Shown here in pieces: positions 35,682 to 64,000 of a stretch of DNA of 64,000 nucleotides (positions are counted from its first letter, which is position 1; every line of letters starts with the position of its first letter). A model generated the notes under the pieces. The model saw only the letters and a list, made by a program, of their open reading frames with translations. It had not been told where the DNA came from and did no database searches. The DNA comes from Candidatus Foliamicus sp. (lineage in GTDB: Bacteria; Pseudomonadota; Gammaproteobacteria; Steroidobacterales; Foliamicaceae), in NCBI GenBank assembly GCA_965238055.1, contig OZ250178.1, positions 2,841,184-2,905,183 on the forward strand, in the 5' to 3' direction. The translations under genes and the position numbers were made by a program.

Positions 35682-35842
35682 TGTCGTGTCCCAAAAATAC
35701 CTTCGCTAATCTGCGGTCCTTTTCTCTCCCCGGCAGCGTTGCTCCTCCTTATGTGGGGCCTACCACACTGCGTCGTCGCGCCTTGCCGGGAAGAGAACAT
35801 GCCTCGCATCTTGAGCAAAGTTACTTGTGGGACACGACACTA
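35679..35842. mobile_element. MITE-like element: 15-bp perfect terminal inverted repeats bracketing the whole DAHPS-uvrC spacer
   Basis: TAGTGTCGTGTCCCA (35679-35693) and TGGGACACGACACTA (35828-35842). Can equally be read as 13-bp TIRs flanked by a TA/TA duplication. Only one copy is seen in this window. Confidence 0.35.
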
Positions 35843-35847
35843 GCGCC

Positions 35848-37674: not shown

Positions 37675-37677
37675 CAC

Positions 37678-37752
37678 CCTGGGAAGGAAGACGTCCCCCT
37701 GGGAACGAGGGCGTCCCGCCCTCGGCGAAGGCGAGACGCCTTCGTTCCCAGG
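37678..37752. repeat. REP-like composite palindrome after uvrC
   Basis: CCTGGGAAGGAAGACGTCCCC + CTGGGAACGAGGGCGTCCCGCCCTCGGC + inverted GAAGGCGAGACGCCTTCGTTCCCAGG. Confidence 0.8.
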
Positions 37753-37797
37753 TGTTGCGCGCGAGCATGATGCAAAGGGATTCGCTATAGTTGCGGC

Positions 37798-38364
37798 ATG
37801 AACCTGGCCATACTTTTAACCTGGTTTCGCGTCGCGGCCATGCCCACCATCGTGGCCCTTTTTTACCTGCCATATTCCTGGGCGCACCCCGTTGCCGGCC
37901 TGGTCTTTGCCACCGCCGCGTTGACCGATTGGGCGGACGGCTGGGTAGCGAGGCGCTTCGACCAGGGATCGCGTTTCGGCGCCTTCCTGGACCCGGTAGC
38001 GGACAAGCTGCTGGTCATCGCCGCGCTGTTGCTTCTGGTACAGGCCAACCCGGGGATGGTGCTGGCGCTGGTTGCCATCGTGATAATCGGGCGGGAAGTG
38101 GCGGTGTCCGCGCTCCGCGAGTGGATGGCGGCGCTGGGCAAGCGTGGTCGCGTCAACGTCATACAACTGGCCAAGTACAAGTCGACCGGTCAGATGGTCG
38201 CTTTGTCCTGCATGCTGTATGAAGAACCGCTCGGGTTCCTCCCGGTCTACGAGATCGGCTACATCCTGTTGCTCCTGTCGGCAGCGCTAACTCTTCTGAC
38301 CGGCGGCCTGTACATGCTTCGCGCCCGATCGGCGGTCCGCAACCCGTTGGCGGGAGAGGGATGA
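37798..38364 (+). CDS. pgsA: CDP-diacylglycerol--glycerol-3-phosphate 3-phosphatidyltransferase
   Basis: CDP-alcohol phosphatidyltransferase motif DWADGWVARRFDQGSRFGAFLDPVADK. uvrC-pgsA synteny. Confidence 0.93.
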   Translation: MNLAILLTWFRVAAMPTIVALFYLPYSWAHPVAGLVFATAALTDWADGWVARRFDQGSRFGAFLDPVADKLLVIAALLLLVQANPGMVLALVAIVIIGREVAVSALREWMAALGKRGRVNVIQLAKYKSTGQMVALSCMLYEEPLGFLPVYEIGYILLLLSAALTLLTGGLYMLRARSAVRNPLAGEG

Positions 38365-39788
38365 TCGTGCCTGCATTTGCGGGTAATTCTTCGGCCAGAT
38401 TGGCAATGCCCTGCATCCTGATGGCGCTCGCTGTCGGCGCTTGCGACTCCCCGGACGATACTGTGCAATCCGGCATAGCGATCAGCAATGTGACCGTTGT
38501 TGATGCGGTTGGCGGCGAACGCTCCGGGCAGACCGTGCTCATTGAGGGCGACCGGATTGTTGCCGTCGGCCCTGCAGATTCGATTTCTTACAGTGCGGCC
38601 GAAACGATCGACGGCGCTGGCAAGTTCCTGATCCCCGGTCTGTGGGACATGCATGTTCACCTCACCTTTGATGACCGGTTTACGGCCATGATGCCGGCGA
38701 CGTTCATACGTTACGGCATCACCAGCGTGCGTGATACCGGTGGATTGATGGCGAAGATGGCGCCGGTAGTCGAGCGCATGCGTGCCCAAGGCGCGATTGC
38801 GCCGCGAGTGTTCTTCAGCGGGCCGTTACTCGATGGAGTACCGGTGGTATACGATGGAATCGATGCTCCCGAAATCGGCGTGCCAAATCCTACGGTTGAG
38901 ATTGCCCGGTCGCGTGTTGCGGATCTGAAGTCGCAGGGCGTGGACTTCATCAAGATCTACGAGATGGTTAGTCCCGAGGTTTTTTCGGCCTTCGTCGACG
39001 CTGCCCAGGAACATCGTTTGCCGATTGCAGCACATGTGCCCCTTTCGATGCGCGCATCTACTGCCGGTCCGCACGTGAACTCCATGGAACACCTGCGTAA
39101 TGTTGAATTGGACTGCGCGGGCAATGCGGAAGCACTGCATAAGACCCGGCTGCAAATCTTGTTGGAAGGCAAGGAGAGCTCGGGGATGAAACTGCGCACA
39201 GCCATGCACAGTCTGCAAAGATTGGACGCGGTAGCCGCGTTGGACGAAAAACGCTGCGCGGATGTTCTCGCGGAGCTGTCAGACACCATTCAGGTGCCGA
39301 CGGCACGCTTGAATGCGCTCTCGATGTTTCCGGTCTTCGAGCGGGATGACTGGGAGGAGGCGCTCGCTGAGATGCCGCCGGAGGTGCAAGAGGAATGGGG
39401 CGGTCCATCGCCGTGGGTCAATCGGGATCCAGCGCAGCGCGATCTAAGATTCGCACAGTACACGCTGGACATGATTGGACGCATGCATAGGGCCGGCGTT
39501 CCGATCGGCGCCGGAACCGACACACCGATAGCGCTCGCAATCCCCGGATACAGCCTTCACAACGAGCTGGAAATACTGGTCGCCGGGGGGCTTACCCCGC
39601 GTGAGGCACTGGGCTCCGCCACCGTGCAGCCCGCGAAGTTCTTCTCGCTGGAGGATGAGATGGGTTCAATTGCCCCGGGAATGCGGGCGGATCTCGTATT
39701 GCTCGATGCCAACCCCCTCACAGATATTCGAAATACGAGAAAAATAGACCGCGTGATCGCGCGTGGGCGCCTCATGCCGGTCAACTGA
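38361..39788 (+). CDS. amidohydrolase-family metallo-hydrolase (lipoprotein/secreted)
   Basis: Lipobox-like LAVGAC. NVTVVDAVGG...ILIEGDRIVAVG, then LIPGLWDMHVHL (HxH metal site); C-terminal ...GSIAPGMRADLVLLDANPL. ATGA overlap with pgsA. Confidence 0.85.
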   Translation: MIVPAFAGNSSARLAMPCILMALAVGACDSPDDTVQSGIAISNVTVVDAVGGERSGQTVLIEGDRIVAVGPADSISYSAAETIDGAGKFLIPGLWDMHVHLTFDDRFTAMMPATFIRYGITSVRDTGGLMAKMAPVVERMRAQGAIAPRVFFSGPLLDGVPVVYDGIDAPEIGVPNPTVEIARSRVADLKSQGVDFIKIYEMVSPEVFSAFVDAAQEHRLPIAAHVPLSMRASTAGPHVNSMEHLRNVELDCAGNAEALHKTRLQILLEGKESSGMKLRTAMHSLQRLDAVAALDEKRCADVLAELSDTIQVPTARLNALSMFPVFERDDWEEALAEMPPEVQEEWGGPSPWVNRDPAQRDLRFAQYTLDMIGRMHRAGVPIGAGTDTPIALAIPGYSLHNELEILVAGGLTPREALGSATVQPAKFFSLEDEMGSIAPGMRADLVLLDANPLTDIRNTRKIDRVIARGRLMPVN

Positions 39789-39828
39789 GCGGCTCGGCAG
39801 CATGCCGTTCTTTCCCGAAGGAGAAACA

Positions 39829-40464
39829 ATGAGAACATCGTGTCTGGTCGTGTGCGGACTGCTCTTTCTTGGAGAGGGTTCCGCCGAAACGCTTAAGTGG
39901 GATGCGTCGAGCTATTCGCAGGAAGTCACGCCATGCGATCTGGTGGCGACTCACGGCTCCGACCCCAATGCCGCGGCGCCGGGCGCGTCTGGAAGCGAGA
40001 TGGACTTTCCCAGGGCAATAGCGGCTTGCGAGGCTGCAGTTGCCGTAGATTCTGGAAACCCAAGGCTTCGTTACCAGCTCGCCCGGGTCTACACGTATGC
40101 CGGGGAGCCTGAGAAGGGCAAACCCCACATGGACGCCGCGGTCGCGGCGGAATACCCTCAGGCCTTGTTTGTAGAGGGCTATATGCAATATCTCGGCATC
40201 CAGAAAAGGTCCGGGGATTCCTGCAAGGCCGCGAAGTTGCTTCGGCGCTCGGCCCAATACGGGCGACTGGCTGCGCAAATCGGTTACGCCGGGTATGCAT
40301 TGGATGGCGGATTCGATGAATGTGGCGAGGCTGCGGAACCGGAGGAATTACGGAGTTTTCTTGCTTCAGCGGCGGGCGCTACGGACAACTACTACCGAAG
40401 CATGCTCATCGGCATGCTGCAAGAGGAAGTGGACGCGACGTGGCCCGTAACAAAAGGTAATTGA
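39829..40464 (+). CDS. hypothetical secreted protein, possibly Sel1/TPR-like repeats
   Basis: ATG at 39829 after GAAGGAGAA. Signal MRTSCLVVCGLLFLGEGSA. Weak Sel1-like periodicity (YQLARVYTYAGE..., QALFVEGYMQYLG..., AAQIGYAGYALDG). Confidence 0.45.
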   Translation: MRTSCLVVCGLLFLGEGSAETLKWDASSYSQEVTPCDLVATHGSDPNAAAPGASGSEMDFPRAIAACEAAVAVDSGNPRLRYQLARVYTYAGEPEKGKPHMDAAVAAEYPQALFVEGYMQYLGIQKRSGDSCKAAKLLRRSAQYGRLAAQIGYAGYALDGGFDECGEAAEPEELRSFLASAAGATDNYYRSMLIGMLQEEVDATWPVTKGN

Positions 40465-40475
40465 TGCCCCTTTCG

Positions 40476-40500
40476 GGCCAGGAAACAAGGTGTCCTGGCC
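40476..40500 (+). terminator. stem-loop GGCCAGGA-N9-TCCTGGCC after the preceding CDS
   Basis: Perfect 8-bp stem at 40476-40483 / 40493-40500, 12 nt after the stop codon. No clear T-tract, hence low confidence. Confidence 0.3.
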
Positions 40501-40553
40501 GCCGCTTCTATTGAATCGAAAGAGGCGTTACTGCTAGACTCATCGCCCTTAAG

Positions 40554-40628
40554 GCGGGAATAGCTCAGTGGTAGAGCACAACCTTGCCAAGGTTGGGGTC
40601 GCGGGTTCAAATCCCGTTTCCCGCTCCA
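40554..40628 (+). tRNA. tRNA-Gly (anticodon GCC)
   Basis: GCGGGAATAGCTCAGTGGTAGAGCACAACCTTGCCAAGGTTGGGGTCGCGGGTTCAAATCCCGTTTCCCGCTCCA. All four stems pair and CCA is encoded. Confidence 0.95.
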
Positions 40629-40677
40629 TTTTTTCAGCAAGATTCAGCGTCCTTCGGCGCGTCCTGCGGAAAAGCCG

Positions 40678-40751
40678 GGCCAGGTGGCAGAGTGGCGATG
40701 CAGCGGACTGCAAATCCGTGTACGCCGGTTCAATTCCGGCCCTGGCCTCCA
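40678..40751 (+). tRNA. tRNA-Cys (anticodon GCA)
   Basis: GGCCAGGTGGCAGAGTGGCGATGCAGCGGACTGCAAATCCGTGTACGCCGGTTCAATTCCGGCCCTGGCCTCCA. Acceptor GGCCAGG/CCTGGCC and CCA encoded. Confidence 0.95.
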
Positions 40752-52042: not shown

Positions 52043-53407
52043 ATGACGACTGAAACCTGGTCATCCACGCGTGGCTTCCTCATGGCCTCGGTGGGCGCGG
52101 CTGTCGGCCTGGGCAACCTGTGGCGCTTCCCCTACATTGCCGGCAGCAACGGCGGCAGCGCATTCGTGCTGGTGTACATGGGCTGGGTGCTGGCGCTGGG
52201 ACTGCCGCTGGTAATCGGTGAATTGGCCCTGGGACGGCGCGGCGGACTCAATGCCGTACACACGATGCGCGAAGTCGCGCTCAGGGAAGGGCGAAGCAGC
52301 GGCTGGGTAGTGGTCGGGTGGCTTTCCATCCTGGTCCCGCTGGTGGGGATCACCTACTACAGCATCGTTGCCGGCTGGTCTTTGAACTACACCGTGCTGG
52401 CGGCCCAGGGAAGTTTCCGGGGAATCACAGCGCAGGGATCGCAAGAACTGTTCGGCGAACTGTTGTCCAGCCCGTTGCGGATGATGTTCTGGCACGGTCT
52501 GTTCATCGCTGTCGTGGTGGCCGTGATTGCCGCCGGCGTGCGCCGAGGACTCGAGTTGGCGAGCAAGCTGATGATGCCGGGCCTGTTCGTCCTGCTGGTC
52601 CTGCTGGTGATCTGGGCGGCCATTGCCGGCGATTTTCGCCAGGGCATGTCGTTCCTGTTCAGCGCGGATTTCTCGGCACTCACTATGGACGGCGTCCTGA
52701 TGGCGCTGGGCCAGGCGCTCTTTTCGCTGGCGATCGGCGTGGGCATGCTGATCACCTACGGCGCCTATGTCCCCAGGAACGTATCGCTGCCAAGGGCCGG
52801 GGCGATTATTGCCGGCGCCGACTCGCTCGTAGCCCTGCTGGCGGGCATGGCCATTTTCCCGGTGGTGTTCTCAGTGGGCCTGGAGGCGAACAGCGGTCCG
52901 GGCCTGATTTTCGAGACCCTGCCCGTGGCCTTTGCGGGGATGCCGGGCGGGGTCGTGCTGGGGACGCTGTTCTTTGTAATGCTCAGCCTGGCCGCAATCA
53001 CCACCGGATTCGGAATGATCGAGCCTGCAGTGGCCTGGATGTCGCGCAGCACGTCACTGTCGCGTCCTGTCAGCACCGTGGTTGTCGGCCTCCTGACCTG
53101 GTTGGTGGGGCTGATCTTTGTATTTTCCTTCAATGTGTGGGGCGACCTGAGACCTCTGGGCGGTGTCTTCAGCGAAATGGGACTGTTTCAGCTCGTGGAT
53201 TTCCTGGTGGCGAATGTGCTGTTACCGGTCAACGCCTTGCTGTTGGCGGCTTTCCTGGGCTATTTCTGGGCGCTGAAGTCCGCTTCTTCGGAGACTGGAT
53301 TGAGTGGTTCCCTGCTGCGAGTCTGGCGGGTGCTGCTCTGGTTGGCGCCGATCCTCATTCTGCTCGTTCTCTGGGGTCTGTTGAGAGATTTCCTGCCCGG
53401 CGCATAA
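52043..53407 (+). CDS. sodium-dependent transporter, neurotransmitter:sodium symporter (NSS/SNF) family
   Basis: WSSTRGFLMASVGAAVGLGNLWRFPYIAGSNGGSAFVLVY is the NSS signature; multi-TM throughout. Start is ATG 52043 (TTG 52037 listed). Confidence 0.92.
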   Translation: MTTETWSSTRGFLMASVGAAVGLGNLWRFPYIAGSNGGSAFVLVYMGWVLALGLPLVIGELALGRRGGLNAVHTMREVALREGRSSGWVVVGWLSILVPLVGITYYSIVAGWSLNYTVLAAQGSFRGITAQGSQELFGELLSSPLRMMFWHGLFIAVVVAVIAAGVRRGLELASKLMMPGLFVLLVLLVIWAAIAGDFRQGMSFLFSADFSALTMDGVLMALGQALFSLAIGVGMLITYGAYVPRNVSLPRAGAIIAGADSLVALLAGMAIFPVVFSVGLEANSGPGLIFETLPVAFAGMPGGVVLGTLFFVMLSLAAITTGFGMIEPAVAWMSRSTSLSRPVSTVVVGLLTWLVGLIFVFSFNVWGDLRPLGGVFSEMGLFQLVDFLVANVLLPVNALLLAAFLGYFWALKSASSETGLSGSLLRVWRVLLWLAPILILLVLWGLLRDFLPGA

Positions 53408-53433
53408 GACGGCTTTGTTAAACTTGCCTCCCA

Positions 53434-53746
53434 GCCCGGGTGGCGAAATTAGGTATACGCAGGGGACTTGATATTGAGCGCCGGTTGGGAAACCGCCGGA
53501 TGCACCAGGAGTCAAATTCGGGGAAACCTCAGCACCTAAGGTGGTGGCAATCCCGAGCTAAGCCCCGTTACGGGGAAAGTGTAGAGACTTGACGGCTCCG
53601 GCCTACGTCGCCGCCAGGCGATAGGGCAGAGGGAAAGTCCAGACCCCAAAAGGAGCGCACGGCGCATCCTGCGGCGAAAGTCGTAGAGGGTAAGAAAATC
53701 CCCCGGAGGAAACTCCGTGCCGGTTCGAGTCCGGCCCCGGGCACCG
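53434..53746 (+). tRNA. tRNA-Leu (anticodon UAA) interrupted by a group I intron between U34 and A35
   Basis: 5' exon is 53434-53469 (GCCCGGGTGGCGAAATTAGGTATACGCAGGGGACTT). 3' exon is 53695-53743 (AAAATCCCCCGGAGGAAACTCCGTGCCGGTTCGAGTCCGGCCCCGGGCA), then CC. Joined, they give a class II tRNA: acceptor GCCCGGG/CCCGGGC, anticodon stem GGGGA/TCCCC, loop CTTAAAA, long variable arm CGGAG-GAAA-CTCCG, T-arm GCCGG-TTCGAGT-CCGGC. Confidence 0.85.
53470..53694 (+). ncRNA. group I intron (IC3-like, no ORF), ~225 nt
   Basis: The exon ends in U; CUU can pair with the intron GAG at 53476-53478 to form P1 with a U-G wobble. The intron ends in G (53694). Core blocks GTCAAATTCGGGGAAACCTCAGC (53511-) and GTGTAGAGACTTGACGG (53579-53595) closely resemble the P3/P4 and P7 regions of the Azoarcus tRNA-Ile intron as I remember it. 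Confidence 0.8.
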
Positions 53747-53753
53747 TACTGCG

Positions 53754-53882
53754 GGGCAAGGCAAACTGACGGTCAAAAAGGTCCGGGTGATTAATGAACC
53801 GGGCTTGTACGGCGACGGCAATACCCTGTACTTGAGAGTGGCGTCCGGCGGATCCAAGCAATGGGTCCAGCGGCTCACCATC
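53754..53882 (+). pseudogene. 5' fragment (~43 codons) of a P4-type tyrosine integrase (arm-binding domain), no start codon, truncated
   Basis: GQGKLTVKKVRVINEPGLYGDGNTLYLRVASGGSKQWVQRLTI matches the usual ..KLT...V......G.y.DG.gLyL.V...GSK.W..R pattern. It starts within ~10 nt of the tRNA 3' end, and similarity stops at about 53882. Confidence 0.6.
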
Positions 53883-54450
53883 GCACGCAGCGTATCTCGC
53901 CCAGCCTGCATCCGGTCAGCAGGAGCAACCGCACCGCCGCAACGCAGACCGGGCTTTCCGCTTCGCACAGGGGCAGGATCGCGCCGAGCCTCGCAAGGTC
54001 GACCGCGCCGAGCAGCCGCCCGCGCGGCGGTCGCCGGTAGCGGACGATGCCCCTGCGTGGGTTCCCGGCAGCTTCGGGCTGATGGCCCTACGCGATGGCG
54101 CGGTCGAACATGTTGCGCAGTATGTCATGACTTCGATTCGCGCCGCCCGGCTTTCTGCGTCCATATTCGTGGAAGAAGCGGGCAATATCGGCGCACACGG
54201 CCGATCCGACGCGGAGATGGCCGAGCGCGAACAAATATCCAGCACCGCACGGCATGCGCGTAGCTTTCCCGCGTCGCCAGCTTCGCGTGTTCCGAGCGTC
54301 TGCCTAACAACGGAGCCGTTGCAGCGCCGATGCCGGATCCACGTCTTGCGCCCGTCCGGTCGCGGCCCCAGATTGAGCGCATCTATCCTGGCAACGGTGT
54401 TTTTCACGCTCCCGTAGCCTGCCCGGGCAAACGCCGCTATCATATGACCA
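53878..54450 (-). pseudogene. decayed tyrosine integrase (N-terminal half only): frameshift, in-frame TAG, 3' truncation
   Basis: One frame reads ...RPDGRKTWIRHRRCNGSVVRQTLGTRE... A second frame reads ...LGHLRVGSAVCADIARFFHEYGRRKPGGANRSHDILRNMFDRAIA*GHQPEAAGNPRRGIVRYRRPPRGRLLGAVDLARLGAILPLCEAESPVCVAAVRLLLLTGCRLGEIRCVRW. The TAG at 54088-54090 sits where Trp is expected. The catalytic domain beyond the first Arg is missing. Confidence 0.6.
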
Positions 54451-54459
54451 GTTTCATGA

Positions 54460-54714
<255 letters not shown>

Positions 54715-54732
54715 TACCGGCCGTCATCTCGA

Positions 54733-55182
54733 ATGCGCTATTTCGACACCAGTTTCCTCGTACCCCTCGTCCTCCCCGAGACCACCAGCGAGCCGATCGC
54801 CGCTTTTTTCGAGGGCCTGCCGGGTGAAGAGCTGGCGGTCAGCCATTGGACCCGGGTCGAATTCGCTTCGCTTCTGGCCCGCGAAGTCCGTATGGACAGG
54901 CTGCCCGCCTCGGCGGCGCGCGAGGCGGGCTCAAGGTTCGAAATGATGGTCCGCGAGTCGTTCGTCGTGCTGTTGCCGAATCGCAGCGACTTTGATCGGG
55001 CAAGGGACTGGCTCGGCCAATTCGAGACCGGTTTGAGAGCCGGCGATGCGCTGCACCTCGCTATTGCGGGCAACCGCGGGGCGGATGCCATCTACACGCT
55101 GGACAAGCTTATGATCGTGGCGGGCGAGAGGCTGGACTTGCCGACCAGCGCAGGCATCCGCCTCCCAGGCTACGGCGATTGA
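54733..55182 (+). CDS. vapC: PIN-domain ribonuclease toxin VapC
   Basis: MRYFDTSFLVPL (Asp5), ...AGDALHLAIA..., ...IYTLDKLM. The acidic residues sit in the usual PIN positions. Confidence 0.88.
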   Translation: MRYFDTSFLVPLVLPETTSEPIAAFFEGLPGEELAVSHWTRVEFASLLAREVRMDRLPASAAREAGSRFEMMVRESFVVLLPNRSDFDRARDWLGQFETGLRAGDALHLAIAGNRGADAIYTLDKLMIVAGERLDLPTSAGIRLPGYGD

Positions 55183-55489
55183 TGGCTTCCAGGATCCTCC
55201 GCGTATGCTGGGGCTCAAGCAACTCTCGATAACATCTCCGCTCGCAATGGATCGACGGCCAATTGCGGTGATTGCCATTGCTTCTTGGGTGTTGTCCGCG
55301 CAGTAGAGAGGCGATTGATGGCACCGGCCAACGCGGTCACGGAGCTGACAATCGATGTGGTGGACTTTCCGTGTAACGATGAGTCGCGGTTGACCGTTAC
55401 CTCGTAGTTCGAGCCGTTTCTGATAGGGAGTACCGTCACTCACCGTTCCGCAAGGCTTGAGCGGCTTGGTGTGCAACATCACATGGATG

Positions 55490-58222
55490 CTATTGTCGGC
55501 GAGCGGCGGTTGCGAGACGGCGATAAGCTTCGGATTGAACCAGCGTTGGCGCGATCCTTCGGATTTGCTCGAGTGCGTCACCCAAGTAATAGGGGATCGT
55601 CGCATTGTCGGCGCGGGAGATAGTCAAATCAAGAAGGCGAAGCAACGCTCTGGCTTTTGGTTCCTCATTGATCATGGCAAGAGTTGGTCTCTCGCCAGCA
55701 TTATGGAAGTCATAAGAGCGTAGGGACCAACAATCAAACGGCGTAAGGAATCGTTCAATAGTAATTGCCGCCTCAGCGAATTCCTGTCCTGCTGCGACTG
55801 GCAGTTCCGCCAATTTTTCACTAACACTGGAGGAGGCCAGGGAGCGTTCCTGTGGCCATATGGTTTCAAGGAAAGGTCTGGCGACTGATTGAAACAGATC
55901 CTCCTTCGATACGGGGCCCGGAGGCTGATGCTCTGCGTTTACGAAACGAACTATGGCTCCCGCGCAGTACGCCCGTACCTCGTCTTCCAGCAATCGGATC
56001 ATTTGCTGAATTCGCTCTCGCGTCACTTTCGAATTACGCCTTCCCCGTAGCGCATGAAGAGAATCGATCACAACGCTGAACGCAAGCGAGCGGCGGGTTT
56101 TACGACCAAGCCTAGGGTCCGTCGCTCGATAGGCCATATCGTTGCCAATCACTTCTAATACATGAGCAACTCGCGTCCGCCGACCTACGGCGCGCCAAAG
56201 CGCCAGCGCCTCAGAGTCGTCTGCGCGTAGCGGCTCAATAAGATGCTCTTGGGTCCATTCTTCGTCGGACCGCAAAAAGTAATCTAACGCTTCAATCATC
56301 CGATGCTTGGCAATCAATTCTGAGCGCCCGTTAGCATCAATAATTTTTTCGCGCAAAACCGCAAAGTCGTCGGCTCCGTCAAATGGACGAGGCTCCTTGT
56401 TTAGGTTAGGGCAAGCGGCCAAGAAGACGCCGACGAGCTTACCCACAGGCGTGTTCAGCGTATCAAGATCCATAGGATCATCGGAATTGGTTTGCGCAAC
56501 GACATTTAGGTCAGGCTCTTCGTCCGGAGACTGCATGGCATTTGTTGCTTCAACTGCCCTGGGCCAAACGCGGTGCCACACCACCGGCCAATTTCGAGCC
56601 GAGAAAAGTTGTTGCTTCCACGAGTCGAGCCAATTGGAAATTCCTTGGATGGCTTTCGTTATTACGTCATCGGGCAACTCTAGTATGAGAGCAAGCACCC
56701 GACGTGCCTCCGAAGATAAATCGCGCGCTTCATTTTCCTGCGATTTATCTGACGGAGGTGAATGCACCCAACCGAAGCGTTCCCATACCACAGGGTATTG
56801 CGCTCCGCAATCCGCGGTTGATTCGATATCACTCAAAACACTAATGGAATTGCCTTTCTCTGCCAGCCAAGCGTCAGCAGAAAACCCGAAGTTGGATGCC
56901 GCGCGTCGGCTTGCTACGTTCCCGGTGCCAAACGCGCCTTCAAGCACCTGTAGACGGGCGTCGCCTTGCAGATTATCCAGCGAGCGGTCGGGGTGCTCCG
57001 CGACCAACTCCCCGCGTGGGGAATCCAAGTCCAGAAATCCTTCGTCGATTCGATCCATTTCCACCAAGTCAGGAAACTGGCCAATCTTCGAGTCGAGCCA
57101 TTCCTTGGCGCGTTGCGAAAGAGCGGCGCCGGCAATTTCGATCCGCTTTAGTTCCCGAACGACCCAATAGAGGCGGGCCTGTTCAATTTGGTCTGCTCCT
57201 AAATGCCCGCGCCATAAATTTCGGGGCGGCCTCCTGCGTATTCTCCTGATGACCGCCTTTTGCGTCGTGTCGTCAAATTCTGCGAACCGGCGGGCACGCA
57301 GCTCGGCAATCTCCGGATGATGATTGACATCCCAGAACACCCCAAAATCCAATTGAAGAAAAAATTCGCCGACCTCGCCGGCCGGAGTAATCCGAGAATC
57401 ACGCGACATAGCGGCCCACAGTCGCAGGTGCATTGGAGAGTCCGTATGCTTCCAGCGGCGTACAAAGCCCAGTGCTGAAGGTCCATCAATATCAAATAGC
57501 CGCGAAACAACGGCATACAGAAGCTTGACCGATGGCGCAAAGCCTGGGCCACCACCATCGAGCACCCTGTCTTCTTCGCCGCTTTCTGGCTCTGTAACGT
57601 AATGCACGCGACGCAAGTAAAGATGCACCCGCATCCATCCGATGCGCCGCGCAATTCCCAGACCGCGCAAAACCGCAGCGTCTAGCGCATTAGCCAGAGA
57701 AAGTAGAAATTCACCCTCATCCAATTGCGCCAAAGCACTGGCCAGTTGTCGAGAGGTCGAATGGATTTCATCTCCGCTCGTTATCGTGGCGAGCAGGAGA
57801 TCCCGGAATGTTCTTGGAGACTCGCGCAAACCGTAGAATTGCGCATGCCAACTTTGATATTTATCAACCTTCAGTCTCGGCGCAACAAGATCAACAATGG
57901 CCGAAACAAGCGCCCCCGATCGTTCTCCGGAGCGTATCCGATCTTGAACCATTACCGGCTGTATTCCGTAGCGGTCCACCGCTGGCTCATTCCAACTTTC
58001 CTGAATAAGCCTCCATGTGGAACGCCAGGGTTCACGCAGGTTCGTTCCTTCGGGCCGGCTGAGCAGTTCCAGAATTGCATGGCGCTTGATCAGGTCGCCC
58101 GGTAGAAGATGCAATGCCCATTCGACGGTTTCTTTTTTCTCCAGCCGGCCTTCCAGAAACGTGACCGCGGCGCGCATCATCGCTTCATCCCTGTCGTTCA
58201 ACACTGAGCGCAGAAAACTCAC
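55490..58222 (-). CDS. large (~910 aa) uncharacterised protein, translationally coupled to the upstream SIR2-like gene
   Basis: A long uninterrupted ORF in a more AT-rich region. The GTG at 58222 shares 1 nt with the SIR2 TAG stop, and GGAGG lies 7 nt upstream. No Walker A, HExxH, nuclease or other motif found by eye. Leu/Arg/Glu/Ala/Trp-rich, probably helical. Confidence 0.8.
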   Translation of the reverse strand: MSFLRSVLNDRDEAMMRAAVTFLEGRLEKKETVEWALHLLPGDLIKRHAILELLSRPEGTNLREPWRSTWRLIQESWNEPAVDRYGIQPVMVQDRIRSGERSGALVSAIVDLVAPRLKVDKYQSWHAQFYGLRESPRTFRDLLLATITSGDEIHSTSRQLASALAQLDEGEFLLSLANALDAAVLRGLGIARRIGWMRVHLYLRRVHYVTEPESGEEDRVLDGGGPGFAPSVKLLYAVVSRLFDIDGPSALGFVRRWKHTDSPMHLRLWAAMSRDSRITPAGEVGEFFLQLDFGVFWDVNHHPEIAELRARRFAEFDDTTQKAVIRRIRRRPPRNLWRGHLGADQIEQARLYWVVRELKRIEIAGAALSQRAKEWLDSKIGQFPDLVEMDRIDEGFLDLDSPRGELVAEHPDRSLDNLQGDARLQVLEGAFGTGNVASRRAASNFGFSADAWLAEKGNSISVLSDIESTADCGAQYPVVWERFGWVHSPPSDKSQENEARDLSSEARRVLALILELPDDVITKAIQGISNWLDSWKQQLFSARNWPVVWHRVWPRAVEATNAMQSPDEEPDLNVVAQTNSDDPMDLDTLNTPVGKLVGVFLAACPNLNKEPRPFDGADDFAVLREKIIDANGRSELIAKHRMIEALDYFLRSDEEWTQEHLIEPLRADDSEALALWRAVGRRTRVAHVLEVIGNDMAYRATDPRLGRKTRRSLAFSVVIDSLHALRGRRNSKVTRERIQQMIRLLEDEVRAYCAGAIVRFVNAEHQPPGPVSKEDLFQSVARPFLETIWPQERSLASSSVSEKLAELPVAAGQEFAEAAITIERFLTPFDCWSLRSYDFHNAGERPTLAMINEEPKARALLRLLDLTISRADNATIPYYLGDALEQIRRIAPTLVQSEAYRRLATAARRQ

Positions 58223-59496
58223 TACCAACCCTCCCGCTGATCCTCCAACGGCACGCTCACAATGGCATTCAGCCATCCCAGTTCCGCCTTTTGCCTGGAA
58301 ATCACCTTGGACAGGCGAACACGCTCGCTCGGGTCGCTGCGTCGAATTAGATGGTCGAAAAAATCACGCTGCTCATCGCTTGCTTCCGATCTTCTTGTGC
58401 TCACGATTCTCTTTAGTTCACGTTCGACCTGGCTTCTGCTTGCGCCAATTGAAAGAACTCCGGCCCATCGCTCCAATGTGTGCTCAAGCTGCGAATGATC
58501 GCCATTCTGAATTCTGTAAGGAATTGGCGTGATTCCTTGAGCCCTCCAGTCCTCCAACTCCACCGAATCATCATTTGTCATCCCATGGAATATGAAACGC
58601 TCCTTTAGATCCGGAAAATGGGCCCTGTCTGCAGCGACGGCGTTCAGAAGGTATCTCATTGGCGGATCGTTGGCGCTGTACCCCACCAGCACCAGGTTAT
58701 ACAAACGCGCGGCATCGTAAATCAGGTCGGGCACGACCCGCCTGCGCAAATAGAATTCACCAAAGTCCTGATCGGAAATGATCAGGTCCGTCGTTCTCTT
58801 GGGATTCCGGTCCAGCGCGCCGTGAATGTGCAGGACACCGCTGAATTCCGGCCTTAGCGATGGCCTGGGAATGCTTCCCAGAGCATACGTCTGAATAGGC
58901 TGCCTCATGTTTCTCGCAGCATTTTCCAGGAGCAAATCGAAATTCGTCGTGATGATGGTCGACGCTGCGCCACGGTCCGAAAGACGCATCAATGCCCGAT
59001 GAATCGGTGCTGGCTTTGGTTTACCGGAACGCAGCACGTCCTTGTTCTCATCTGTGCCATCGGAGCAGGGGCCACCAGACTTTGGTTTACCGGAACGCAG
59101 CACATCCCCAATCGCTTGTCGGATCGGACTGTCAGCGCTTGATTTTCCTTCCAGCCTTCGCTCAAGCATTCCCAATACAACATCGTACTCCTGCCTCCGA
59201 AAACGCCTGACCTCCGCCTGTTGCGCCGCTAGCAGGCCAGTTAGCTCAAGTTCTTCGGGATTGCAACCTGATTCCTCGTTCGTGGCAATCTCGGAAAACA
59301 CGGCTTTGTCTAATTCTTCATACACCCTTAGGACAAGACATCGAAAGTCGGGCAATCCCGCAGACCTCGAAACGCCGGCGCCAGCTACAAATAGAACCCT
59401 GCCTTGCGCATGTGCAAGAAGCAGCCGCTCAGGAATCGGGATCAATGATGGTCCCAGCAAAATGTTCCTGCCGCCAGTGGTGGGGGGTTGCGTCAT
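58222..59496 (-). CDS. SIR2-like (SIR2_2 family) putative NAD+-consuming protein
   Basis: VLFVAGAGVSRSAGLPDF, TTNFDLLLE, LHIHGAL and LVLVGYSANDP occur in the canonical order. Contains an in-frame internal duplication (DVLRSGKPK x2). Confidence 0.85.
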   Translation of the reverse strand: MTQPPTTGGRNILLGPSLIPIPERLLLAHAQGRVLFVAGAGVSRSAGLPDFRCLVLRVYEELDKAVFSEIATNEESGCNPEELELTGLLAAQQAEVRRFRRQEYDVVLGMLERRLEGKSSADSPIRQAIGDVLRSGKPKSGGPCSDGTDENKDVLRSGKPKPAPIHRALMRLSDRGAASTIITTNFDLLLENAARNMRQPIQTYALGSIPRPSLRPEFSGVLHIHGALDRNPKRTTDLIISDQDFGEFYLRRRVVPDLIYDAARLYNLVLVGYSANDPPMRYLLNAVAADRAHFPDLKERFIFHGMTNDDSVELEDWRAQGITPIPYRIQNGDHSQLEHTLERWAGVLSIGASRSQVERELKRIVSTRRSEASDEQRDFFDHLIRRSDPSERVRLSKVISRQKAELGWLNAIVSVPLEDQREGW

Positions 59497-59567
59497 TCTC
59501 GAGCGTGCCCCATCCGTAGAGCCATTGAGTTAAATGGCGCCGCCAGCATCAACGCCTCGTCTGGCCT

Positions 59568-60380
59568 CTAAAGCGCCTGATTCGCGTCGACGCTGAAACC
59601 GGCGGCCTTCAACTCTCGCAATAGCTGCATTTTCCACCCGTCCTCATTGTCTAGAGGAACATAGAGGATGCCATCGCAGTCCGAGGGTCTTTCAACATTT
59701 CCTTTCGACAATGCACAGACTCTCTCCCGGCCTAATTTCCCGATGAAGTACCCAAACTCGAAAACGACATTCTGCCGTGCGCGAGGCTTGAGGTTGCGCC
59801 GCTGTTCCCTGAGCGCACCCATGTCGTCCGGCGTTAGCAGGACGACGGCAAACGTGACGTCTCCGTAGTCCTCGAACTTCTCGATAATTGTGCGCCCTTC
59901 ATTCGGCTGTTCGTGCAAGATAACCGGTTTGAGTTTCAGTTTTTCGAGGAATCGCGCAACCGTTTCCCGAGCCGATTTGTCGTGGCCATGGATCACAAAG
60001 ACCTTGTTCGTATTCTTCTGAACCTTGACTTGAGAATCGGAGGTTTTTGACGATTCCTCGTCGTCTTCCCAGTATTCCTTGATCTCCTCTATCATGGATT
60101 CGAGTACAGACGCAGCTCTATCCAAGCCCCGCCGATATGCCGCTTCGAACTCTGAATCCGGTGTGCCCATCGCAAGTGCCATCAGCGAATAGCGGATGCT
60201 ATTGAAGTCCACAACGTGGCTTGACTTGCGGCCGAACGTATTGGCAATAGCCACTCGTGCGTTCCTGCGCCATTTGTTGAACTCCGGTGATTGGCGTCGC
60301 AGCCTCTTCAATTCAGGCACTTCGTCCAGTACTCTCCTCAGGCGTTGAATAGACTTCGCTTTATTCGGACGGGCCATCAA
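59568..60380 (-). CDS. TIR-like nucleotide-binding domain protein (COG4271 / Cap12-PycTIR-type) with ~130-aa N-terminal domain of unknown function
   Basis: The C-terminal half VFVIHGHDKSARETVARFLEKLKLKPVILHEQ...FAVVLLTPDDMG...RARQNVVFEFGYFIGKLGRERVCAL...ERPSDCDGILY matches the conserved pattern of this TIR-like family as I remember it. Confidence 0.85.
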   Translation of the reverse strand: MMARPNKAKSIQRLRRVLDEVPELKRLRRQSPEFNKWRRNARVAIANTFGRKSSHVVDFNSIRYSLMALAMGTPDSEFEAAYRRGLDRAASVLESMIEEIKEYWEDDEESSKTSDSQVKVQKNTNKVFVIHGHDKSARETVARFLEKLKLKPVILHEQPNEGRTIIEKFEDYGDVTFAVVLLTPDDMGALREQRRNLKPRARQNVVFEFGYFIGKLGRERVCALSKGNVERPSDCDGILYVPLDNEDGWKMQLLRELKAAGFSVDANQAL

Positions 60381-60709
60381 CTCAGTTCCTTGATATTTAA
60401 GTCCTGGATTCCTCGGTCATCCACGATCTTCAGAATGGTCTTATCAATTGCCACGGGTGTTTTCTACTCATATCGTCCCGTGGGTTTGATTCTGGCGCCA
60501 ATGATAGTCGGTCGACTCGCTACCGCGGAATTTCCGTGTTGTTGGACAGTTTCTCCACACTGGCCTGCCTCCAGAAATTGTTGATCACACACAACAAATT
60601 GTCTTGTTGCTCGTGTGCTCGTTCTGAATCGATCCCGCCCGCATCGTCGGATCCTCCTCCCCAAAGTCGAGAAGTTGCAGGGAATGCTCAAGCCCCGAAA
60701 GCAATACGA

Positions 60710-63511
60710 TCATCGCTTTCGGCGTCGTTTGCCCTTTATGTCAGCCGCAAGCGGCGTTCGCATCTTTTCATAGAGTGCGAACAAATGTTCGACGCGCTGG
60801 CGCTCCGACGCGAAACCGGAGCGGCGATAGAGTTGATCAACCGCACGGTCGAGCGCTTGATGCGCCTTACGCAGGTTCGGCGGCATCAGGTCGGGATCGT
60901 AGAGATTGGCGAGGGTGGACGTGAGCCATTCGGCGCGGGCGTCGAGGACGGCCTGCGCGAGAGTCTCTATCTTTGACAAGTCAAGGTCTCGGTTGGTGAA
61001 GTCGGGTGGAGTCGGGAACGTGTTGTAAACGAGGCCGATGGAGTATCGAAAATCGCTCTTTAGCCGTCCACCGACATGGCACAGCCACGTCATGTGCATG
61101 GAAGATGTCAGCAGCGCGAAATCTGCCAGCGTAGCGTTTTCAAGTACGCGCACAAGATTGCTTGGTATCACGGGTGGCTCAAGCCAGCCGATAGGTACGT
61201 ATTCCCGCCGTTCGGAACTGACTTCGGGAATCACCAGGAACGACTCCGTCGGAAGCACGTTCACGTGATAGAGCGTCGGCGTTTCGGCCAGCTTGATCGT
61301 GGGTTTGCTCTTGCTGGCTTGCCTGTAGGCGCGAACGGCTGCGATCCGTTCACGCACAAGCGGCAATTCGGCAAGTGTGTGCGGGGGCGCGTCGTGCAGC
61401 GCGAGAATCCAGCGGTCTCCGCCTTGCAGGTACTCGCGTGCACCCACAAATGGGCGCAGAAGAGGGGCTGCGCCGGGTTCTTTCTCAAGAAAAATCTCTC
61501 TTTCTTCGGCGTTGAATATGTAATGGCCGCCGTCAATAGGCTTGGAACCGATAATCAGTTTCGGCATGCCGTTGATCGGCTGGCTTTCCCCGCGCACGGT
61601 CAGATGCGAGTCGCCCAATCGGCTTGCGTCGAATAGATAGGGCGATAGAACTGTGTGGCGGGTTTCCTCCGGCTCGCCCTGGATGTCGGGATAGCTGAAC
61701 AGGCGTTTCTCGGCATGCACACGGTCGCGTCGGTTGAGGCCCAGAATCGCTACATGAACATGCGCCTTGCCGCGCGCATCCGACCCCCACGCGAAGGTGC
61801 GGTGAGCGAAGGCGATTTCCAGCTTGCAGCGATCGAACAAGATCGGCCAGAGCTGCGCCACCTGCTCGCCCTGGGTAATCGAGTTGGTGGCGACAAAGCC
61901 GATACGGGCGTGGCCTGACTGCACGTACTCGCCTGCCTTGATGAACCAAGCAGTGACGTAGTCGAGCGTGCCCCCGCTCCCGCCCAAGGCAGCGATTCGG
62001 CGCACCTGCGCTCGTTGCTCCGCCGTCTGAAACTTTGCGCCAACGAACGGGGGATTGCCGAACACGAACGAGCACTCTTCGGGCAGAAGGACTTCTCGCC
62101 AATCCATTTCCAGCGCGTCACCGTGCACGATGTGCGGCGAGGTTTCCAACGGAATGCGCGCGTAGGTCTGGCCGAACTCCAGGCTCAGCCGGTTGTTCAT
62201 GATGTGATCCATCATCCACATGGCGGTCTCCGCAATGCGCGCGGGAAATTCGCTGATTTCCATGCCGTTGTACTGATCCACGTCGATCAGCGAAAGCGTG
62301 GCGGCGTCAAGCTCCTCTTGACCAAGCCTGGCGGCCGTGGTGCGGAGTTCGCGGATCACCTCGAGCTCCAAAAGCCGCAGTTCGCGGTAGGCGATGATGA
62401 GAAAGTTGCCGCAGCCGCAGGCGGGGTCGAAGAAGCGCATGCGGCCCAGCTTTTCCTGAAAACGCCGAAGGTCTGCCCTGCGGCGGCTGTCCTTGCGGGA
62501 CTTTAGACGCTCGAATTCCGCCCGCAGATCGTCCATGAACAGCGGTTCGATCACCTTGAGGATGTTCTTTTCGGTGGTGTAGTGCGCCCCCTGGGCGCGG
62601 CGTTGCTCCGGCTTCATGACGGACTGGAACAGCGCCCCGAATATGGCGGGCGAAATGTTCGACCAGTCGAAGCGGCACACCTCCAGCAGTGCTTCGCGCA
62701 TGGAAGCGTTGAAGGATGGAGTGCGCAGGTGCTCGCGAAACAGGTCGCCGTTGACGTACGGGAAACGCGCCAGGTCCTCGTCAAGGAGCGGACTGCGCTC
62801 CTCTTCGGGCGAATTCAGGACCTCGAACAGTTGTCGCAGCCACGGTCCCAGGTCAGCGCCGTCTTCGCTGGTGCGAGTTTCGATGAACTCCAGGAAGATG
62901 TCACGGGGCTCAAAGATGCCGGTGTCGTCGGCGAACAGGCAGAACACGATGCGCACCAGGAAGCGTTCGAGGTCGTGGCCCCGATAGTTGGCGGCATGCA
63001 GCGCGTCGTGCAGTCGTCCAACCAGTTCCGCAGCCTTGATGTTGGCGGGATCCTGATCGCGGAAGGTGCGCTTCTGCACGCCGAGGATGAAGCCGAAATG
63101 CTCTACGTGGGCGGGAAGGTCCTTGAGGCTGAATCGGACCTCTGTGCGCTCGTCCAGATCGTGCAACTCGAAGGTCTGGAAATCGCTGACCAGGATGTAG
63201 CGGGGACGGTCTCGCTCCTTGAGTGCGTCGAAGTATTCTCCGGCCTGACCGTAGGCTTTGCTGAGATCACGCCCGGCGCTCTTCTGTTCGATGATCAGGA
63301 CGCCGGGCCAGAACAGGTCGATGAAGCCGGAACTGTTGTCGAGCTTTGCTACATGCTCCTCATAGCGTGCCACCGAGCGACGCTCCACGCCGAATGCCCG
63401 GAAGAAGGCATTGTAGAAGCTGTGGGTTTCGCTTGTCTCGCGAACCGCGTTGCTCCATTCGTCGGCGAATGTGGCCGCGCGGACCCGGACCTCGTTCCAT
63501 GAAAGGCGCAT
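60710..63511 (-). CDS. MmeI-family type IIL restriction-modification enzyme (fused endonuclease, N6-adenine methyltransferase and target-recognition domain)
   Basis: 933 aa. N-terminal PD-(D/E)xK-like FIDLFWPGVLIIEQKSAGRDL, methyltransferase motif I FFDPACGCGNFLI and motif IV FGNPPFVG, plus a long C-terminal TRD. No separate M or S gene is nearby. Confidence 0.88.
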   Translation of the reverse strand: MRLSWNEVRVRAATFADEWSNAVRETSETHSFYNAFFRAFGVERRSVARYEEHVAKLDNSSGFIDLFWPGVLIIEQKSAGRDLSKAYGQAGEYFDALKERDRPRYILVSDFQTFELHDLDERTEVRFSLKDLPAHVEHFGFILGVQKRTFRDQDPANIKAAELVGRLHDALHAANYRGHDLERFLVRIVFCLFADDTGIFEPRDIFLEFIETRTSEDGADLGPWLRQLFEVLNSPEEERSPLLDEDLARFPYVNGDLFREHLRTPSFNASMREALLEVCRFDWSNISPAIFGALFQSVMKPEQRRAQGAHYTTEKNILKVIEPLFMDDLRAEFERLKSRKDSRRRADLRRFQEKLGRMRFFDPACGCGNFLIIAYRELRLLELEVIRELRTTAARLGQEELDAATLSLIDVDQYNGMEISEFPARIAETAMWMMDHIMNNRLSLEFGQTYARIPLETSPHIVHGDALEMDWREVLLPEECSFVFGNPPFVGAKFQTAEQRAQVRRIAALGGSGGTLDYVTAWFIKAGEYVQSGHARIGFVATNSITQGEQVAQLWPILFDRCKLEIAFAHRTFAWGSDARGKAHVHVAILGLNRRDRVHAEKRLFSYPDIQGEPEETRHTVLSPYLFDASRLGDSHLTVRGESQPINGMPKLIIGSKPIDGGHYIFNAEEREIFLEKEPGAAPLLRPFVGAREYLQGGDRWILALHDAPPHTLAELPLVRERIAAVRAYRQASKSKPTIKLAETPTLYHVNVLPTESFLVIPEVSSERREYVPIGWLEPPVIPSNLVRVLENATLADFALLTSSMHMTWLCHVGGRLKSDFRYSIGLVYNTFPTPPDFTNRDLDLSKIETLAQAVLDARAEWLTSTLANLYDPDLMPPNLRKAHQALDRAVDQLYRRSGFASERQRVEHLFALYEKMRTPLAADIKGKRRRKR

Positions 63512-63580
63512 CAGTTCGTGTCGCTAGCCTTATTCAGTGTGCGGGACAGCTCATATGGCGTCGGGCTCACAGCCATCGAG

Positions 63581-63832
63581 TCATCCGAAAAGCGTTTCAC
63601 GGACCTCGCTCTTTGGCCGATCCAGGAAATCCGCGACGTCGGACACGATTCCATCCGGGGTATCAATGTGCAAATCCCGGTGCCTTGGCACTGTCACGCT
63701 GTGCCGCTTCGCGTCCGCGTTCGTGCGCGTGACAGGCATGTGACTTCCCTTCGTTCGGGTCACACGATACCCGTAGTGCCGAGCGAGCAGCCTTGCGACC
63801 TTCTCACCGGAGAGGTCGCGCGGAACCTTCAT
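63581..63832 (-). CDS. hicA: HicA-family mRNA interferase toxin
   Basis: 83 aa. ...LSGEKVARLLARHYGYRVTRTKGSHM... is the HicA dsRBD-like signature. ATGA overlap with the upstream HicB-like ORF. Confidence 0.85.
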   Translation of the reverse strand: MKVPRDLSGEKVARLLARHYGYRVTRTKGSHMPVTRTNADAKRHSVTVPRHRDLHIDTPDGIVSDVADFLDRPKSEVRETLFG

Positions 63833-64000
63833 ACGGCGATGGCGTCCTCTCTTACCAGGTGCAATCGGATGACTCTCGGCACCTCCGTTTCATCGAAGTG
63901 ACAGAGGACGGCATCCCGCGCCATTACCTTCAACTCGGGCCAGTCCTCGCCCTGGGTGAAGATGCTATGCCCCAGGGCACGCGCTTCGTATCCGCCTTCC
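63829..64000 (-). CDS. hicB: HicB-like antitoxin, C-terminal part only (5' end beyond window)
   Basis: The minus-strand frame is open to the window edge: ...EGGYEARALGHSIFTQGEDWPELKVMARDAVLCHFDETEVPRVIRLHLVREDAIAV*. Its stop overlaps the hicA ATG. Confidence 0.7.
   Translation of the reverse strand, partial: EGGYEARALGHSIFTQGEDWPELKVMARDAVLCHFDETEVPRVIRLHLVREDAIAV

Follow-up and report, generated by a model that had tools for sequence, protein, structure and literature searches.

Group I introns that interrupt tRNA genes have been catalogued by Williams (2020; bioRxiv 10.1101/2020.01.27.920355), who assembled 5292 of them by combining weak matches to the Rfam model RF00028 with split-tRNA calls. 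The seeds of RF00028 include no bacterial one, and matches were accepted from about 18–20 bits when a split tRNA was also called. That catalogue has four classical types of subgroup IC3, among them Leu.3Ug (CUU/...g/AAAA), which lies in tRNA-Leu(UAA). In two Gammaproteobacteria, Ca. Maribeggiatoa BOGUAY and Ca. Thiomargarita nelsonii, no tRNA-Leu-TAA figured among the annotated tRNAs, and the gene turned up with a putative group I intron inside it (Flood et al., 2016; PMC4853749). Here we analyzed a 64-kb stretch (64,000 nt, hereafter the window) of the Candidatus Foliamicus sp. contig OZ250178.1, and we are highly confident that it harbors a functional tRNA-Leu(UAA) gene into which a 225-nt group I intron of subgroup IC3 is inserted, between positions 34 and 35 of the anticodon.

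The locus resembles the Leu.3Ug class (Williams, 2020), to which the seed Ncf2.Leu.3Ug and the introns of 77 genomes from our own scan belong, in the tRNA concerned, the insertion point (CUU/...g/AAAA), the U at position -1 and the terminal guanosine (omega-G), as well as in its P1–P9 helices, the GAAA loop on P2, a two-hairpin P9 (one hairpin of the class reading gcggc-GAAA-gccgu) and the invariant core. Its layout is, helix by helix, the same as that of Ncf2, the non-cyanobacterial Leu.3Ug seed. Compared with the class, the P1 of the window intron is very short (4 bp closing a 4-nt loop), its P2 contains a bulged U, its P9b has a G·U in place of a G-C pair, and its P7 (GACUU/AAGUC), P6 (GCU/AGU) and P3 (GGAGUC/GGCUCC) are 'gamma-type' versions. 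The trnL(UAA) introns of cyanobacteria and plastids (Anabaena/Nostoc type) have in common with it the gene, the U34/A35 site, the IC3 subgroup and a homologous core, but the cyanobacterial introns that we sampled form a separate, distant cluster in a neighbor-joining (NJ) tree and display features of their own, namely P7 GACUC/GAGUC, P4 CUCAGG, P9 AUUCUC/GAGAAU and usually longer P5/P6.

The initial annotation of this DNA, made without database searches, had likened the core to that of the Azoarcus pre-tRNA-Ile(CAU) IC3 intron, and the likeness is indeed close. Two core blocks, at 53511-53528 (P3-J3/4-P4; 17 of 18 bases alike) and 53579-53595 (J6/7-P7-J7/3; 16 of 17), are each one base off the Aol6.Ile2.5Ug row of the Williams seed alignment, and both introns are small, GC-rich, capped by GAAA loops and devoid of an open reading frame (ORF) of their own. 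The Azoarcus intron differs in residing in another tRNA, at anticodon-loop position 5 instead of 3; its P5 and P8 each contain a canonical 11-nt receptor, and its P9 is simpler. The BOGUAY and Ca. Thiomargarita nelsonii introns, likened here from their published description, share a gammaproteobacterial host and an interrupted tRNA-Leu-TAA; they belong to another lineage, of which a Thiotrichaceae representative (L103) falls into the same gamma-type cluster as the window intron.

A group I intron splits the tRNA-Leu(UAA) gene

When ARAGORN was run with introns allowed, it reported tRNA-Leu(taa) i(37,225), i.e., a 225-nt intron at position 37, which agrees with both the coordinates and the U34/A35 insertion point proposed in the initial annotation. 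All tRNA and intron features described here lie on the + strand. The 5' exon (53434-53469) spans the acceptor arm, the D arm and the 5' side of the anticodon stem and ends in C32 U33 U34; the intron follows at 53470-53694; and the 3' exon (53695-53743) supplies A35 and A36, the 3' anticodon stem, the long variable arm, the T arm, the acceptor stem and the discriminator A. The locus thus reads GCCCGGGTGGCGAAATTAGGTATACGCAGGGGACTT, a 225-nt insert that both begins and ends with G, and AAAATCCCCCGGAGGAAACTCCGTGCCGGTTCGAGTCCGGCCCCGGGCA-CC, the CC (53744-53745) standing directly 3' of the discriminator base. Once joined, the exons fold as an 87-nt class II tRNA-Leu(UAA) with the anticodon loop CU-UAA-AA, a 7-bp acceptor stem, a 3-bp D stem, a GGGGA/UCCCC anticodon stem, a 14-nt variable arm and a discriminator A. 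This spliced sequence is about 79% identical to annotated tRNA-Leu genes and was matched in 5424 of 5426 E. coli genomes. The insertion between positions 34 and 35 of tRNA-Leu(UAA), with exons that join to a canonical tRNA, is that of Leu.3Ug introns.

To place the insert among known introns, we used a nhmmer profile of 77 other tRNA-Leu(UAA) introns, built without the window's own clade. It matched at 53470-53696 with 134.4 bits (E=8e-41; model positions 8-228 of 228), and this was the only match of the profile in the window. A local search of 601 nt with RF00028 gave 33.2 bits and E=1e-6, the alignment running end to end over model positions 1-253, and a pattern composed of the exons and the core had no match in 100 shuffles of the window. 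Together with the covariation described below, these data bear out the earlier proposal of an IC3 intron at the cyanobacterial/plastid trnL site and confirm, on sequence grounds, that the intron is genuine, well conserved and an ordinary member of a catalogued class.

The insert had also been judged too short for a homing-endonuclease gene of the kind found in mobile introns. This holds for its length of 225 nt, and no gene is called in the tRNA/intron region of the source contig; the mechanically derived ORFs that overlap the intron measure 50-121 aa and were not compared with protein families.

In its default mode, ARAGORN called no tRNA at the locus and just three elsewhere in the window; Rfam, searched at gathering thresholds, was likewise silent at the locus. 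Default searches would therefore overlook the gene and leave a genome seemingly without a UUA tRNA, and such misses would mislead tRNA-based completeness checks as well as island finders.

Covariation supports the predicted P1–P9 fold

The P1–P9 model was drawn by hand after the Williams consensus, and its pairs were counted on a MAFFT alignment of 82 sequences (A1). Across the 44 modelled pairs, including the P3/P7 pseudoknot, 97.3% of cells were paired, compared to 28-42% in controls in which the partner was slid by one to three columns. Compensatory changes were seen at 30 of the 44 pairs, and none of 500 shuffles reached any of the observed measures. A consistent P3–P8 core fold, as anticipated in the initial annotation, is thus found. 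The alignment holds 48 invariant columns, all by definition present in the window, among them J3/4 AAA, J4/5 AA, J7/3 GAC, omega-G and the P7 G-C pairs with their bulged A.

At the 5' splice site, P1 (53467-53478) is formed by exon CUU and intron G1 with the internal guide U6-G7-A8-G9, which creates a wobble between U-1 (53469) and G7 (53476). Each of the 82 homologues is able to form such a P1 with its U·G wobble, so that the CUU/GAG pairing noted previously stands; in the window itself, the pairing (CUUG/UGAG) was assigned by hand from the UUGAG guide of the relatives L122 and L126, the best solution of our script being a different, longer-range pairing. In 70 of the 82 sequences, the guide G is preceded by UU able to form P10 with the AA of the 3' exon, and the window's U5-U6 can likewise pair with A+1 A+2.

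In the P2 hairpin (53481-53499), U16 is bulged and the cap is a GAAA tetraloop (53489-53492). The three pairs next to the loop are 91.9% paired, each with compensatory changes, and the hairpin is recovered in the minimum free energy (MFE) fold of RNAfold. A different hairpin, CGGTT-GGGA-AACCG, had been proposed initially; only 35.6% of its cells are paired, no better than the slid controls, and we consider it a mis-assignment of P2, which is shifted in register, capped by GAAA and interrupted by the bulged U.

Within the core, the 5' strand of P3 (GGAGUC, 53508-53513) is followed by J3/4 AAA (53514-53516) and pairs with the 3' strand (GGCUCC, 53594-53599), which is itself preceded by J7/3 GAC (53591-53593). 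P3 is 99.8% paired, with compensatory changes at four of its six pairs and up to four pair types at each. The segment from P4 to J5/4 (53518-53556) contains P4 (53518-53523 with 53551-53556), J4/5 AAA, the P5/P5a hairpin (53527-53547) and J5/4 CAA; P4 and P5 are each 100% paired. L048 and L021 hint at another register of P5, in which U60·G78, C61-G77 and A62-U76 would replace the canonical CC/GG pairs C58-G78 and C59-G77, which are 100% paired. P6 (GCU/AGU) and the P6a hairpin (CCCCG-UUA-CGGGG) occupy 53557-53580; the closing pair of P6 covaries (CG in 65 sequences, UA in 14, GC in 3), and P6a is 98.4% paired.

P7, the guanosine-binding helix of the model, has its 5' strand, G-(A)-GACUU with the bulged A116, at 53584-53590, pairing with 53635-53640. 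The pairs G115-C171 and G117-C170 do not vary in any of the 82 sequences, and with the A116 bulge, which is present, they make up the predicted guanosine-binding site; the last P7 pair covaries (AU 59, UA 15, CG 5, GC 3). Between the two P7 strands lies the P8 hairpin (53600-53628), whose internal loop CCUACG/UAGGG is receptor-like and may serve as a tetraloop receptor. The outer pairs of P8 are 97.3% paired with compensatory changes, and many homologues have CCUAAG/UAUGG at this position. J8/7 (GAGGGA) and the 3' strand of P7 (AAGUCC) follow at 53629-53640.

Toward the 3' end, P9 carries the two hairpins P9a and P9b (53643-53691), the latter reading GCGGC-GAAA-GUCGU with its GAAA loop at 53676-53679. 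Compensatory changes occur in P9, P9a and P9b, which are 93.3%, 88.4% and 95.1% paired, respectively. The terminal G pointed out in the initial annotation is confirmed as omega-G (53694), the last nucleotide of the intron; 77 of 77 homologous Leu(UAA) introns likewise end in G, with AA next.

The intron is conserved at a syntenic site

The UvrC protein encoded in the window is 80-90% identical to proteins of about 20 contigs of metagenome-assembled genomes, one of them labelled 'Chromatiales bacterium' (86%), and 53-59% identical to those of the next named Gammaproteobacteria and Woeseiaceae. These relatives agree with the gammaproteobacterial host suspected from the outset. Loci of close relatives, which are likewise uncultured Gammaproteobacteria, were reached through the protein of the Na+ symporter gene that lies upstream of the tRNA gene (80-87% identity), which yielded seven loci with five different sequences. 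An intron-bearing tRNA-Leu(UAA) gene was located directly downstream of the symporter gene at all seven. The tRNA and intron are 90-94% identical in these relatives, and, as judged by eye, most substitutions fall in the hairpin loops of P2, P5, P6a, P8 and P9a and not in the core. Since five sequences share the intron at a syntenic site with this degree of identity, the comparison indicates that the intron is vertically inherited and under purifying selection in the clade.

In the window, the tRNA gene begins 26 nt past the stop codon of the symporter gene (spacer 53407-53434). The corresponding spacer is about 300 nt long in the relatives L126 and L127.

The intron most likely splices itself out

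By analogy with the established group I pathway, we propose that the intron most likely removes itself from the precursor. The precursor would be transcribed, possibly by read-through from the Na+ symporter gene, and the intron would fold into P1–P9, with the U-1·G7 wobble in P1 setting the 5' splice site. Free guanosine bound in P7 would then attack the 5' splice site after U34, after which omega-G would take the place of the guanosine in P7 while P1 and P10 on the guide UUGAG hold the exons. In the second step, the 3' OH of U34 would attack the 3' splice site after G225, joining CUU to AAAA. The product would be a tRNA with a restored 7-nt anticodon loop, able to read UUA and UUG. Probably, as in Azoarcus, the GAAA loops L2 and L9b dock on P8 and P5.

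Several observations weigh against this account. The RF00028 score lies below the gathering threshold of that model (33.2 versus 50 bits), so default scans miss the intron; this check is borderline despite its local E-value, and in our view the family profile and the covariation carry more weight. Folded by itself, the intron has an MFE z-score of only -1.92, and thermodynamics alone would not make the case. The internal loops of P8 (CCUACG/UAGGG) and P5 (CCUCAG/GGUGG) deviate from the canonical 11-nt GAAA receptor, which makes GAAA docking the least certain step. A scan for promoter and terminator consensus sequences around the tRNA gene found none, and given the 26-nt spacer, co-transcription with the symporter gene or read-through from it is possible. 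Finally, some plastid trnL introns are not known to self-splice in vitro.

The modest z-score and the non-canonical receptor-like loops would also fit a genuine intron that is weakly autocatalytic and needs a protein cofactor or an RNA chaperone in vivo, in the manner of plastid trnL introns, which reportedly fail, in general, to self-splice in vitro. We think this improbable, because every invariant of the catalytic core is kept along with the two GAAA loops, because in its compactness and GC-richness the intron resembles that of Azoarcus, which self-splices robustly and is one base off in each core block, and because no conserved candidate maturase gene was seen beside the tRNA in the relatives.

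Alternatively, the split gene could be a decaying, non-functional copy, with UUA and UUG being read by an intact second tRNA-Leu(UAA) at some other place in the 3.37-Mb genome. In favor of this reading, the tRNA scan covered the 64-kb window of that genome, and the gene does sit at the edge of a mobile island. Decay is nevertheless very unlikely: exons and intron keep 90-94% identity in relatives in which the flanking protein reaches only 80-87%, the core does not vary, and the changes look loop-biased or compensatory. The gene content of the window points in the same direction. A tRNA-Gly(GCC)/tRNA-Cys(GCA) cluster (40554-40751), usual for Gammaproteobacteria, closes a uvrC-pgsA-tRNA stretch (35827-40751) without being followed by a tRNA-Leu(UAA) gene, and the window's sole tRNA-Leu(UAA) gene, 12.7 kb from this cluster, is the split one. 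In E. coli, leuZ occupies the position after the Gly/Cys cluster, and its absence here is a hint that no copy other than the split gene may exist. There is, moreover, the precedent of the Beggiatoaceae, in which the tRNA-Leu-TAA missing from the annotation turned up as an interrupted copy. The order uvrC, pgsA, tRNA-Gly(GCC), tRNA-Cys(GCA) recalls the glyW-cysT-leuZ neighbourhood of E. coli, minus the tRNA-Leu(UAA).

Chance resemblance, or an unrelated insertion in a tRNA pseudogene, might be suspected from the silence of default tRNA and Rfam scans at the locus, yet it is refuted by the match to an independent family profile (E=8e-41), the covariation that backs all helices and the lack of any pattern match in 100 shuffles, and we give it virtually no credence.

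A functional split gene with a self-splicing intron is therefore the account we retain. UUA codons are in use (12 of 7758 codons, about 0.15%, in 14 window genes sampled; the genome has 60% G+C), so the cell needs a tRNA-Leu(UAA), and if the split gene is the sole one, splicing would be essential for reading UUA. UUA decoding would then rest on a guanosine-dependent ribozyme, which might act as a GTP/Mg2+-sensitive gate on the few genes containing UUA, comparable to bldA in Streptomyces. This, like the separate idea of a very old trnL intron taken up below, is a speculation to which we attach only slight probability.

Related introns are widespread

Species-representative genomes were scanned with the exon-anchored core pattern ACTT...AAAYTCRGNGAA...AGAGACYNGAYGG, and at least 120 genomes match. 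Among the 120 matches listed, ARAGORN in intron mode identified 77 as tRNA-Leu(taa) split at the same site. According to the record titles, the hosts of these 77 are 33 Alphaproteobacteria, 17 Acidobacteriota, 10-11 Gammaproteobacteria, 5 Cyanobacteria, 3 Betaproteobacteria, 3 Eremiobacterota, 2 Bacteroidota, 2 unclassified Pseudomonadota and 1 Binatia. Gammaproteobacterial hosts include Steroidobacter flavus, Halioglobus, Carnimonas nigrificans, Ca. Rariloculaceae, Thiotrichaceae and Pseudomonadales. An intron of a deep-subsurface gamma-proteobacterium was reportedly described by Vepritskiy et al. in 2002.

The genes flanking the window intron occur in none of the 120 species genomes listed, and its identity to introns outside its own clade is at most 74% in well-aligned columns. 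In a rough NJ tree, the window clade lies inside a mostly gammaproteobacterial cluster, and introns group by host phylum or class with few exceptions (Gamma-, Alpha- and Betaproteobacteria, Acidobacteriota, Eremiobacterota and Cyanobacteria). The window intron is thus a divergent but typical Leu.3Ug member of a class already known. The initial annotation, which mentioned at least one earlier report of a trnL intron in a gammaproteobacterium, overstated the rarity of such introns, as is evident from the Leu.3Ug catalogue (Williams, 2020), the Beggiatoaceae reports and the scan with at least 120 matching genomes. The locus adds one uncultured gammaproteobacterial lineage to a widely documented ribozyme class and opens no new question.

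Clustering by phylum would be compatible with a trnL intron much older than the cyanobacterial lineage, a separate suggestion to which, as to the UUA gate mentioned above, we attach slight probability. Among the exceptions, the gammaproteobacterial hosts L039 (Halioglobus), L041 (Carnimonas) and L045 (Ca. Porisulfidus) carry trnL introns of the alphaproteobacterial type, and the Acidobacteriota L005 and L042 (Pyrinomonadaceae) carry introns of the gamma type. Judging from these tree positions, the host-mismatched introns are possible horizontal transfers.

Similar introns in other tRNAs account for 35 of the 120 matches listed (Phe, Ser, Thr, Arg, Cys, Ile, Gly, Asn and other Leu, isotype and site being approximate and uncurated), at L003, L004, L009, L013, L016-L018, L022, L024, L029, L034, L040 and other loci; a further 8 of the 120 gave no tRNA call.

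A variable island adjoins the tRNA gene

Directly 3' of the tRNA gene begins a variable island of defence and mobile-element genes, whose left part fills the remainder of the window (53746-64000, unstranded). We followed it past the window on the source contig (L129; a 3.37-Mb contig of ENA metagenome assembly ERZ26166901), where it ends at about 73.3 kb, for a total of about 19.5 kb. Its first element is a remnant of the N-terminal arm-binding domain of a tyrosine integrase (53787-53890, + strand), which is a neighbor of the intron and not part of it; about 27 residues match Pfam Arm-DNA-bind_3 with 16.9 bits and E=0.007, which falls short of the cut-off. Next in the window come Phd/YefM and PIN genes, a gene for a 928-aa protein with a SIR2_2 gene, a CAP12/Pycsar-type TIR protein gene and an MmeI-family restriction-modification enzyme gene; beyond it lie HicA, IS21, NERD/LysM, AbiEii/AbiEi and Fic genes, after which a gene for a dienelactone hydrolase follows.

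The initial annotation had also described the tRNA gene as an island integration site. In the relative L128, the dienelactone hydrolase gene stands directly behind the tRNA, and this empty site implies that the window genome carries a 19.5-kb insertion, which, with the integrase remnant, favors that description in part. A part of the expected signature is missing, as no att direct repeat matching the tRNA 3' end turned up in the window or in the full island (best match 11 nt, E=0.16). The cargo at the tRNA-flanking site differs in each relative, and homology stops within 1-2 nt of the discriminator base. From these comparisons, the site appears to behave as an integration hot spot, and the locus illustrates how an intron can be inherited vertically in a clade while the DNA just 3' of its tRNA turns over as a defence island.

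Two further observations concern the island cargo. The 928-aa protein (55490-58276, - strand), which has no Pfam match, overlaps the start of the gene with the SIR2_2 domain (58222-59496, - strand), and from its sequence the pair looks like a two-gene SIR2-based defence module. The relatives L123 (11804-18816) and L124 have other defence-like cargo at the tRNA-flanking site, with two HigB/HTH toxin-antitoxin pairs that bracket RNase_T, DCD, NYN and SLFN/AlbA_2 genes.

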